From Parcubacteria group bacterium GW2011_GWA2_42_14 (GTDB lineage: Bacteria > Patescibacteriota > Minisyncoccia > Sungbacterales > GWA2-42-14): a stretch of 64,000 bases of DNA. A program made the position numbers and the translations under genes. Within the stretch, counting starts at the first letter, position 1, and each line of letters starts with the position of its first letter. The stretch is taken from the NCBI GenBank assembly GCA_000998135.1, contig LCCV01000004.1:85681-149680 (forward strand), given 5' to 3'. This document shows positions 31,596 through 34,058 of this stretch, piece by piece. The notes under the pieces were generated by a model, which saw only the letters and a list, made by a program, of their open reading frames with translations, searched no databases and was not told the origin of the DNA.

Positions 31596-34058
31596 ATGGA
31601 ACATAATCATAAAATTGAAAAAGAGGTTGAAAAAGAATCTTACTGTGTTTGCGGTAATGGGTGTTTATGTTGGAGCGCTGAAAAGTTAAGCGTAAATTGC
31701 GGTTGCGGTATGGAGGCCAAGCAGTTTGAATATAAAATGGATAAAAAGTGCTGTCATACCGAACACGGGCACGGCGGAGAGCCAAAGAATGATGAAAAAA
31801 TTGTTTACCCCGTTAGAAGTCCGGAAGTGCCTTTGTCTTTAGGGCTGCCTAAGGGCGAAGCCGATTTACATCATGGTTTTTCATCAGACATGAAGCCCTC
31901 TTTGACTTCTAACGTGGTTTACACCTGTCCGATGCATCCCGAAGTCGTAAAAAATGAACCCGGGCTTTGTCCCGGCTGCGGCATGGCGCTCGTGCCAAAA
32001 AAAAGCGAAGAATACGGTGGAAAAGATTTTTCAAAAATAAGTCATAAAGACCACGAAGCGGCAATGACCAATCCGGAGATGGCTAAAAAGATGGAAGTGG
32101 ATATGCGGCGCCGGTTTTGGATTTCTTTTCTTCTTTCTATTCCTGTCGTTTTGTATTCTCCTTTGGGGCTCAACTATTTCAAACTTAATCTTCCGACTCC
32201 GATTCCGGCAAGCTGGCTTCTTTTTCTTTTAACTACGCCGATTGTTTTTTGGACCGGCTCAATTTTCATTACCGGCACTTATTATTCGTTTAAGGCCAAA
32301 AAACTCAATATGGCGGTTTTGATTGCTACGGGAGTTTTGGCGGCATATCTTTTCAGTGTTTTATTTACGTTCATCCGGCCGGAGTCGGAAACATTTTATG
32401 AAGCCGCGGCTTTGCTTGTAACTTTCGTTCTTTTCGGCCATTGGATGGAGATGAAATCACGCCGAGGCACCTCGGATGCCCTACGCGCTCTTTTTGACCT
32501 TGTACCGCCGAAAGCAAATGTTATTCGCGGGGGAAAAGAAATGAACATACCAAGCGCTGAAATAGTTCATGGCGATATTGTTGTGTTGCGTCCCGGAGAT
32601 AAGGTGCCGGTTGACGGAGAAATTATTGAGGGCGAGTCCTCCGTTGATGAATCGCTGGTAACCGGAGAATCTATTCCGGTTTCCAAAACTATTGGCGCGA
32701 AAGTAATTGGCGGTTCGGTAAATCAAACCGGCATGGTCAAATTTAAAGCCGTTCAAGTCGGTTCAGAAACCGTTTTGGCGCAAATCATCAAACTTGTTGA
32801 AACCGCCCAGAACTCCAAAGCTCCGGGACAGCGTATTGCCGATAAAGCGGCCGGGTGGCTCGTTATTGTTGCCATTGGTTCGGGTCTTGCCGCGTTTTTG
32901 GGATGGTATTTCGGCGCGGGCGCCGGCTTTCTAACAGCGCTTACTTTTGCAGTTTCCACTATTGTGATTGCCTGCCCCGATGCTTTAGGCCTGGCAACGC
33001 CAACGGCAGTTGCCGTGGGAACCGGAATCGGCGCCAAACATAATATTCTTATTAAGGACGCGGCCACGCTTGAAAACACTTCCCGTCTTAATGCTATCGT
33101 GCTTGATAAAACCGGAACGCTTACGGAAGGAAAACCGAAAGTTACCGATGTCGCCGCTTTCAACGGTTTTACGGAACGGGAAATACTTAATTATGAAGCT
33201 AGTGTTGAAGTCGGTTCAAACCACCCCCTTGCTAAAGCGATAATGGAAGAAGCAGAAAGGCGGGGCGCTATGCCGCTTGAATCGATTGGTAAATTTGAAT
33301 CTATTCCCGGGCACGGTCTTAAAGCGGTAATTAACGAAAAAACGGTTTTTGCCGGAAAAGAAAAATTTCTGACTGATAATAGAATAGAGATCGGGAATGG
33401 TCGGACAGTACTTGATAAGCTGGCCGGTGAAGGAAAAACTTTAAGCTTGCTCGCGGTTGGCGGGATTTTTGCCGGGATAGTAGCGGCGGCCGATACAATA
33501 AAACCAAACGCGAAAAAAGCGGTTGAAGAACTTAAAAAACTCGGCATTGAAACAGCAATGATTACCGGCGACCATAAAAAAGTTGCCGAGGCCGTCGGTA
33601 AAGAATTGGGGATTGAGCGAATTTTTGCCGAAGTTTTGCCGGAAGACAAAGCCAAGTATGTTAAAAAATTGCAGGAGGAAGGAAAATTTGTGGCCATGGT
33701 GGGCGACGGCATCAATGACGCGCCGGCCCTTGCCCAATCGGATATAGGAATTGCTATCGGAGCCGGCACCGATGTTGCCAAAGAAACCGGAAATATTATT
33801 TTGGCCAAATCCGATCCCTTGGATATTGTACGCGCCATTCTTTTGAGCAAGGCCACCGTCCGGAAAATGAAGCAGAATCTTTTTTGGGCCGCGATTTATA
33901 ATATTTCAGCCATTCCGGTGGCGGCCGGCGTTTTTTACAGTTCGCTTGGCTGGTCTTTGCGGCCGGAAATTTCAGCTCTTCTTATGTCGGCCTCGTCTAT
34001 TATTGTCGCCACCAACGCGGTATTATTAAAAAGAGTTGAATCTTTCCTTAAGCAGTGA
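31596..34058 (+). CDS. heavy-metal (copper-type) P1B-type ATPase with Cys-rich N-terminus and atypical CPD transmembrane motif
   Basis: DKTGTLT phosphorylation site. [10 protein letters not shown] hinge. TGES actuator (LVTGESIPV). N-terminal CxC/CC clusters and YTCPMHPEV…CPGCGM metal-binding motif. TM6 motif reads [12 protein letters not shown] (checked against the DNA: tgc ccc gat), not the usual CPC. Confidence 0.8.
   Translation: [820 protein letters not shown]
31808..31917. repeat. family B palindromic element inserted in-frame within the Cu-ATPase gene
   Basis: ccccgttagaagtcc … gacttctaacgtgg. Encodes [37 protein letters not shown] between the Cys-rich N-terminus and the CPMHPE motif. 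Confidence 0.7.

Follow-up and report, generated by a model that had tools for sequence, protein, structure and literature searches.

A palindromic element resembling miniature transposable elements, very probably inserted in frame in a P1B-type ATPase gene of a groundwater Parcubacterium, and elements with the same termini across many phyla

The window analyzed here, a stretch of 64,000 nucleotides from contig LCCV01000004.1 (positions 85,681 to 149,680 of the forward strand) of Parcubacteria group bacterium GW2011_GWA2_42_14, an uncultivated groundwater bacterium, contains the gene of a heavy-metal ATPase (protein UV01_C0004G0121, gene called copA below) that reads through a 110-bp palindromic segment in its N-terminal region. 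A preliminary description, made from the DNA letters alone, had proposed this segment as an element inserted in frame, and both its sequence and its place in the open reading frame (ORF) were found as described there. The locus is organized as follows (positions in the window, all on the plus strand):

31596–34058 (+): gene of a P1B-type heavy-metal ATPase (copper-annotated), 820 aa; the insert corresponds to residues 72–109
31804–31807 (+): target-site duplication TTTA, left copy, in the target context G-TTTA-C
31808–31917 (+): palindromic element resembling a MITE (transposable element of the miniature inverted-repeat type), 110 bp, read through in frame in the ATPase gene
31808–31821 (+): left terminal inverted repeat, CCCCGTTAGAAGTC, 14 nt
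31854–31864 (+): central module GGCGAAGCCGA (mini-hairpin GGC-GAA-GCC); the subfamily as a whole conserves the wider consensus AAGGCGAAGCCGACTTACGTCT
31904–31917 (+): right terminal inverted repeat, GACTTCTAACGTGG, 14 nt, with one mismatch to the left arm
31917–32000 (+): metal-binding domain HMBD (Pfam PF19335, residues 108–135), beginning exactly where the insertion ends
31918–31921 (+): target-site duplication TTTA, right copy

The Pfam domains of the host protein, namely PF00122 (E1-E2 ATPase), PF00702 (HAD hydrolase) and PF19335 (HMBD), are those of a P1B-type ATPase, and its homologues are named copper-translocating by their source records. The segment lies where it had been placed by the preliminary description, between the Cys/His-rich N-terminus and the CPMHPE...CPGCGM motif of the HMBD. 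It reads CCCCGTTAGAAGTCC...GACTTCTAACGTGG over positions 31808–31917, has the terminal inverted repeats of a MITE, complementary at 13 of 14 positions (CCACGTTAGAAGTC being the match of the right arm on the minus strand), and is recovered by a profile of its subfamily (nhmmer, E = 9e−20). When folded, it forms a 14-bp terminal stem (−42 kcal/mol, z = −4.2). Its first C and last G, taken together with the TTTA flanks, give the appearance of a duplicated GTTTAC.

We consider the copA segment to be, with high probability, an inserted copy of a MITE-like mobile palindromic element that is tolerated in frame. The insert is absent in all of the 24 closest CopA orthologues (71–85% identical), and the in-silico excision of 114 bp (element plus duplication) yielded the conserved KIVYTCPMH, exactly the orthologue consensus, so the earlier claim of an insertion stands. 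As the 110-bp element and the 4-bp duplication together add 114 bp, or 38 codons, no frameshift arises, and the element has no stop codon in the phase of the gene; the added peptide was confirmed as first reported, with an exact gain of 38 residues once the duplication is counted. The N-terminal region of these ATPases varies in length and sequence, as it would if the segment were a native, lineage-specific linker (or an ancestral one lost elsewhere) with a coincidental palindrome. Such a linker is refuted by the 14-nt inverted termini, shared with three other copies in the window and more than 170 elements elsewhere, by the 4-bp duplication, by the exact outcome of the excision and by the similarity of the interior to that of a second genic copy in prfB (z = 5.8), and it retains practically no probability. 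Repeats can also mis-join metagenome contigs, and a repeat-induced chimera created during assembly or binning would be suspected where two records of Candidatus Sungbacteria metagenome-assembled genomes (MAGs), P0271 and P0272, annotate the ATPase from Met130 only, downstream of the insert. However, the full 820-aa protein with the insert was found on five contigs, its sequence is on record from several sources, and the insert was also found in three further variants (P0273–P0275), all of which speaks against an artefact of assembly. The reading frame runs on unbroken and both flanks match orthologues, and we regard this explanation as extremely improbable. The insertion region may have disturbed gene calling in P0271 and P0272. 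The insert is fixed in several related strains, and the search for an empty-site copA allele in metagenomes gave no exact 32-mer match.

A miniature, non-coding, hairpin-forming element would thus have entered G-TTTA-C at the Val-Tyr codons that start the HMBD. The insertion duplicated 4 bp, and the GTTTAC duplicate re-creates 'VY' on both sides of the insert, so that the HMBD is intact; position 1 of the HMBD profile matches residue 108, the Val of the downstream 'VY'. The 38 additional residues lengthen a linker in the N-terminal region whose conservation is low in any case and for which no structure is predicted. In an AlphaFold2 model based on 40 homologues, residues 1–106 had a predicted local distance difference test (pLDDT) score below 50 and the HMBD one of about 70. 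The model is weak overall (mean pLDDT 60.5), which tells against the notion of a tolerated, flexible linker to the extent that 'disordered' here stands for low confidence, with nothing structured predicted. The insert is presumably transcribed and translated within the protein, where it would be tolerated, neutral or nearly so, rather than functional. Co-option, in the form of a role of the peptide in the ATPase N-terminus or of an mRNA hairpin of about 110 nt regulating translation or stability, would fit the stable fold of the transcript region (−42 kcal/mol, z = −4.2), the fact that the frame in use is the only open one, and variant P0275, in which 7 of the first 34 residues differ while the insert is identical. 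This identity extends over residues 35–167 and may reflect recombination rather than constraint; moreover, the insert is missing from all close orthologues, the same element occurs in unrelated genes and mostly in intergenic DNA, and the peptide, in a region modelled without structure, offers as potential metal ligands among Cys, His and Met only two His and one Met. We therefore hold co-option to be improbable and keep to a tolerated insertion. As a separate observation on the host protein, its transmembrane metal-site motif (residues 459–463, window positions 32970–32980) reads CPD, where CPC is usual, and is invariant in 40 homologues, so the 'copper' label inherited from source names may deserve checking.

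The window holds four copies of the element, as had been claimed, at 10726–10832, 18724–18826, 22405–22516 and 31808–31917. The 11-mer CGTTAGAAGTC (at most one mismatch) occurs five times in the window against 0.68 expected, a count of at least five being reached in 0 of 100 shuffles, and relaxed matching of the termini resolved the copies in prfB, at the obg 3' end, in an intergenic region and in copA. No copies beyond these four were returned by a profile search of the window with the copA/prfB subfamily. Apart from copA, the copies are:

10726–10832 (+): 107-bp copy of the copA subfamily, in the same orientation and phase, in frame in prfB (release factor 2 (RF2), domain 1), flanked by TTCA and CAAA
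18724–18826 (+): 103-bp copy of another subfamily (same termini, unrelated interior) at the obg 3' end, with target-site duplication TAAA
22405–22516 (+): 112-bp intergenic copy with target-site duplication CTTG

The kinship between the prfB and copA copies asserted in the preliminary description was well above background: with 14 nt trimmed from each end, their interiors are identical at 53 of 86 positions (z = 5.8), a value that none of 300 shuffles equalled. In prfB, about 37 residues are added between helices of RF2 domain 1, and solved RF2 structures align on either side of the insert (query residues 3–39 and 101–377 with chain residues 28–64 and 91–362); the insert is absent in 14 of 14 nearest RF2 cluster representatives and present in two strain variants. 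The prfB gene has a canonical programmed +1 frameshift site (CTT TGA C, 10528–10534) and its true start at ATG 10468, the ORF listed from 10538 representing the downstream frame only. The obg ORF (17686–18732) stops at the TAG of the left terminus of the element (18724–18732; ...K-P-R-stop), which means that the element supplies both the stop codon and the last two residues of obg.

Both genic copies are read as C-CCC-GTT-AGA (PVRS...TSN), in agreement with the earlier statement that they share a phase, and in both only the phase in use is free of stops. That statement had been tied to either a phase-specific tolerance or a shared origin of the inserted coding capacity; both alternatives were supported, in a mundane form, since the match follows from membership in one subfamily, the same orientation and selection against stop codons, and there is no universal phase. 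The family termini carry TAG at positions 7–9 (left) and TAA at L−7 to L−5 (right), L being the element length, so that one phase is closed on each strand. For an insertion with a 4-bp duplication to stay in frame, L+4 must be divisible by three (L = 2 mod 3), and this puts both terminal stops in one phase and leaves two phases open per strand. Among 123 listed elements of other genomes, six lie in a frame that crosses them without a stop and extends for 40 or more codons on either side. All of these six have L = 2 mod 3, and two or more of them are located in real genes (the Memo-like gene at L047 and the radical SAM gene at L107). Across genomes, both open phases are used (PVR... five times and PLE... 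three times, the two window copies included). Within the copA/prfB subfamily, a third clear in-frame copy, in a membrane protein (L171), shares orientation and phase with the other two and has a recognizably similar peptide. All three clear in-frame copies (copA, prfB and L171) thus use the frame that is most often open, the stop-free counts in 34 other subfamily copies being six for this frame against five, five and two for the others; with so few copies, nothing beyond stop avoidance can be shown. A peptide-profile search for further in-frame copies, in which the word index offered one candidate, gave no match and was uninformative.

More than 170 elements with the same termini were found in many phyla by database scans, and the cross-phylum family and its mobilisation are the more interesting part of these results. 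In species-representative genomes, the pattern CCCCGTTAGAA-N70-100-TTCTAACGGGG matched at least 120 loci, with 123 elements among the matches listed and about two expected by chance according to our own estimate; mutated termini are under-sampled by such pattern scans, and the bases imposed by the pattern are conserved by construction. All listed loci come from MAGs, including a complete 3.3-Mb chromosome and a 1.2-Mb contig, and the taxon names used here are the labels of the MAG records. These labels comprise many classes of Patescibacteria, Deltaproteobacteria/Thermodesulfobacteriota/Syntrophaceae, Planctomycetota, Omnitrophota, Nitrospirae, Elusimicrobia and Cloacimonadota, as well as Edwardsbacteria, Stahlbacteria and Bdellovibrionales, so labelled that the 11-nt termini are common to at least 10 phylum-level groups. 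The elements are 26–310 bp long (mostly 92–122 bp), contain no transposase gene and are dispersed over unrelated loci; short forms of 26–60 bp and long forms of 217–310 bp have the same ends and flanking repeats. Most copies are intergenic, and a few sit in frame within real genes, those of a Memo-like, a radical SAM and a membrane protein. Between subfamilies the interiors are unrelated; conservation is limited to about 11–14 nt at each end and, for one of the subfamilies, a central module of 22 nt.

A metagenome scan for the copA/prfB subfamily recovered 51 loci with 36 distinct sequences of 108–114 bp, in which the right terminus and the neighbours of GGCGAAGCCGA (consensus AAGGCGAAGCCGACTTACGTCT), neither of them required by the search, are at least 90% conserved, while the two segments of about 30 nt between the conserved parts can barely be aligned. 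Only two structures are supported by alignment folding, the 14-bp terminal stem, in which one pair covaries (U-A 16, C-G 14), and the GGC-GAA-GCC mini-hairpin; a long hairpin conserved in the interior was rejected, as the interiors fold little better than shuffles (mean z = −1.25). An Rfam 15 search at gathering scores over the window and six loci returned tRNAs and an L10 leader and no match to the element. No element match was present in viral contigs searched for phage carriage, and plasmids gave chance matches only. In the papers searched, we found the terminal sequence in no relevant context, and those listed on the Candidate Phyla Radiation (CPR) make no mention of miniature inverted-repeat elements; a family of such elements spanning many phyla is apparently undescribed so far.

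Exact 4-bp repeats flank 77 of 122 elements among the matches listed, compared to 0–5 of 122 at control offsets, and 31 of 39 distinct sites in the GGCGAAGCCGA subfamily, i.e., the flanking repeats are exact in 63–79% of elements, and they take the form TNNA. The 4-mers listed include TTTA (22), TAAA (18), TTGA (9) and TGAA (7), and the logo of the target drawn from the same matches reads G-T-N-N-A-C, G being enriched at −5 and C at +5. Close relatives within the copA subfamily carry different exact duplications (TCAA, TTAA and TTGA) in both orientations, from which it follows that the tetranucleotide comes from the target. Two other readings of the flanks were rejected. Many duplications equal a stop codon plus A (TAAA, TGAA, TAGA), and in several cases the upstream ORF terminates precisely within the left copy, but stop-codon targeting would require an enrichment that is not seen (15 of 122 elements against a per-site baseline of 6.5–8%). 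Likewise, a 2-bp duplication with A...T belonging to the element is incompatible with CTTG, CGTG, TGGG and TATG, which also occur on both sides.

Taken together, the inverted termini, the variable flanking duplication, the dispersed copies and the lack of coding capacity indicate a non-autonomous transposon. Less certainly, the family would be moved in trans by a transposase making 4-bp staggered cuts; provided that the elements are mobile, we favour such an enzyme at about even chances. Several results weigh against it. Three subfamilies, with 13, 11 and 8 members spread over different loci, nearly always show the arrangement (G)TAAA-element-TAAA in one orientation, the deviations from TAAA in these subfamilies affect the left side only (five cases, with none on the right only), and the pair TTCA-element-TAAA recurs ten times among the matches listed, the TTCA/CAAA flanks of the prfB copy being one base away. 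Furthermore, 1.18 Mb of flanking loci yielded neither an autonomous element (a pair of termini enclosing an ORF) nor an IS1380-like ORF (searched by tblastn with four IS1380 transposases), no autonomous element with matching termini turned up in the window itself, and no transposase was found in about 20 kb beyond the window. The fixed orientation and the TTCA/TAAA pair are not predicted by a symmetric cut-and-paste transposase, and to us they point to a strand- or orientation-specific integration, as in Y1 or site-specific systems.

The same element could accordingly move in single-stranded form or through site-specific recombination (in the manner of IS200/IS605, RAYT/REPIN or integrases, where RAYT is the transposase associated with repetitive extragenic palindromes (REPs)), in which case the hairpin would be recognised, the left tetranucleotide would be the target and the right one would travel with the element. 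This would account for 32 elements from three subfamilies keeping one orientation with respect to an asymmetric G-TAAA, for the left-only deviations and for the recurrent asymmetric TTCA and TAAA flanks; TTTA...TGAA lengthens the stem on one strand by way of a G.T wobble, there are very short forms (26–60 bp) with the same ends, and the intergenic copy has a Y1 transposase gene at a distance of about 600 bp. One subfamily has at its apex GCGAAGC, known as a very stable mini-hairpin of DNA. On the other hand, the copA/prfB subfamily shows exact, differing duplications in both orientations (TCAA at about 12 loci, TTGA at five), no element position co-varies with the duplication as judged by eye, only one RAYT-like ORF is present in 1.18 Mb of element-bearing loci, and the RAYT gene of the window is flanked by a different palindrome. 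IS200/IS605 elements and REPs are not known to combine inverted termini with flanking duplications. We rate this mode of movement as possible, with a likelihood clearly below that of the staggered-cut transposase. Two specific partners were considered: IS1380 had no match in the loci, and a protein profile search for it returned IS1247-like sequences only; RAYT was rejected, given the single RAYT-like ORF in the element-bearing loci.

Some further observations concern the arrangement of copies and their surroundings. Elements are often found directly in tandem, with one 4-bp repeat common to two neighbours (...GGGG-TCAA-CCCC...; L148 8601–8828 and L115 6124–6231), the right flank 'tcaacccc' in L123, L134, L140, L168 and L170 represents tandem neighbours, and each insertion re-creates a near-consensus target at the ends of the element itself. 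The right flank TGAATCG(A/C) recurs at elements L001, L037, L051 and L116, in MAGs labelled as different phyla, and another conserved sequence may thus adjoin some copies. At L007 (MAG DX4.bin27), two identical 94-bp elements lie within an inverted repeat of about 330 bp (2046–2369 and 4832–5155) that flanks the gene of a 686-aa secreted protein, a segment that may be invertible or duplicated; the 2.7-kb segment between the inverted copies was rejected as an insertion sequence (IS), being enclosed in this larger repeat around the secreted-protein gene.

Considering that the genome is a reduced one, the density of small repeats in the window itself is unusually high. The Y1 IS200-like (RAYT-like) gene (23109–23837, minus strand) is flanked by a perfect palindrome, TTTAGCGAAGTCGGACTTCGCTAAA, at 23070–23099 and 23873–23900, which is also found in frame inside the RAYT-like ORF (23614–23643, peptide NLAKSDFAKL); there is a likeness between the core of this palindrome, TTAG(CG)AAGTC, and the terminus TTAGAAGTC of the element. 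A GC-rich palindrome, GGGCGAGCCTCGCCCCTT[T/C]GGGGCGGGGA, occurs twice (29051–29079 and 29853–29881), the second time in frame in the ORF 29447–30550 (...SGASLAPSGRGG...), and constitutes a second, unrelated palindromic repeat that is read through. Several other families of short repeats were also noticed, GTCATTCTGAC...GAAGAATCT at 19500–19545, 25651–25701, 25777–25816, 31088–31133 and 41932–41982, and GAATGGTTCGACGAGCTCACCACA in eight copies, e.g., at 12449–12472 and 28021–28044. Finally, a 139-nt inverted repeat (90% complementary; 6948–7086 and 10152–10290) brackets two ORFs of TPR proteins and one ORF of a Cys-rich secreted protein.

If the copA and prfB segments are what they appear to be, selfish DNA inside proteins, known from Rickettsia, also occurs in core genes of the CPR (RF2 and a metal pump), and the insertion of such elements would be a concrete source of lineage-specific protein insertions in minimal genomes. 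The ATPase calls starting at Met130 in two MAG records are a warning for annotators, and the termini and length make the elements easy to mask or to track in metagenomes. The family also offers a handle on horizontal exchange among co-occurring subsurface phyla, and it poses a mechanistic puzzle, with no known transposase, a 4-bp duplication and an orientation-specific insertion in some subfamilies. A bolder and rather doubtful version, which we put forward tentatively, would make the copA insert a member of a pan-phylum hairpin family, so far undescribed, of the anoxic subsurface (feet of 11–14 nt, 26–310 bp; hosts in Patescibacteria, Desulfobacterota, Planctomycetota, Omnitrophota, Nitrospirota, Elusimicrobiota and others), tetranucleotide-targeted and orientation-specific, moved by a non-classical mechanism (single-strand, site-specific or an unrecognised enzyme) and repeatedly translated inside essential proteins of reduced CPR genomes, which would amount to a gain of protein segments like that of the Rickettsia palindromic elements (RPEs) outside Rickettsia.

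Among hairpin-forming systems, the family resembles REP/REPIN-RAYT and the palindrome-associated transposable elements (PATEs) derived from IS200/IS605 in being composed of short hairpin-forming repeats. Insertion of IS200/IS605 is orientation- and tetranucleotide-specific and takes place 3' of the target tetranucleotide, and orientation specificity is seen here in three subfamilies; inverted termini and variable exact duplications, a combination that IS200/IS605 elements are not known to have, are present. REPs bear a GTAG or CGTC tetranucleotide tag at the foot of the stem (PMC3733652), whereas the foot is CCCCGTTAG here, with no GTAG or CGTC at the ends, and the RAYT gene of the window (PF01797) has REP-like palindromes of its own and is not flanked by the same repeats. 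In integron attC sites, R'' (RYYYAAC) at the 5' side pairs with R' (GTTRRRY) at the 3' side; such sites were rejected because this polarity is reversed here (GTTAGAA at the 5' side and TTCTAAC at the 3' side) and flanking duplications are present. The bcr1 repeat of the Bacillus cereus group, reportedly described by Okstad et al. in 2004, is about 155 bp long, with inverted termini, a constant asymmetric TTTAT flank and no known transposase; it differs from the present family in sequence, in its 5-bp repeat and in its reported restriction to one species group.

A resemblance is also found with transposons that make 4-bp duplications. PiggyBac duplicates TTAA (rarely TAAA, TCAA or TATG) and has CCC-type ends, and IS1380 is its prokaryotic relative (PMC10813416). 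The CC(C) ends and the 4-bp T..A duplication are found in the present family as well; the ends of four IS1380-family members start with CC and otherwise differ from the family termini, and for ISEcp1, IS1247-like and IS1678 the agreement with CCCCGTTAGAAGTC goes no further than the initial CC, so that this resemblance is a lead and not a membership. In several classical MITEs the duplicated sequence is TA, and for some a link to a known IS family exists; in the present family, by comparison, the duplication is a 4-bp TNNA, no parent IS is known and three subfamilies are inserted in a fixed orientation. What the family has in common with bacterial MITEs is small size, terminal inverted repeats directly abutted by the target-site duplication, no transposase gene, multiple dispersed copies, hairpin transcripts and occasional in-frame fusions with ORFs. 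Such MITEs (Correia/NEMIS, ERIC, RUP, Nezha and the Coxiella QMITE) have been reviewed (PMC10969869, PMC5896051), and in-frame insertion is occasionally seen for the Coxiella QMITE (PMC5896051).

In its effect on proteins the family resembles the RPEs, which, in the account of Ogata et al. (2000) as relayed in PMC10969869, are palindromic repeats lying in frame in unrelated, often essential genes and read through. Both consist of palindromes of about 100–150 bp with genic and intergenic copies and no known transposase, and palindromes in frame in genes and absent from orthologues were found here in copA, prfB, L047 and L107. We would say that the element works like an RPE and not that it is one, being set apart by hosts in unrelated phyla and, presumably, by an unrelated sequence: this family is not limited to a single genus, extends across many phyla, has sharp 14-nt inverted termini and a 4-bp duplication, and has genic copies as a small minority outside the window. 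Functionally, the element matches RPEs and in-frame MITEs, and it differs from them in its phylogenetic breadth, its short conserved termini, the 4-bp duplication and the orientation bias.

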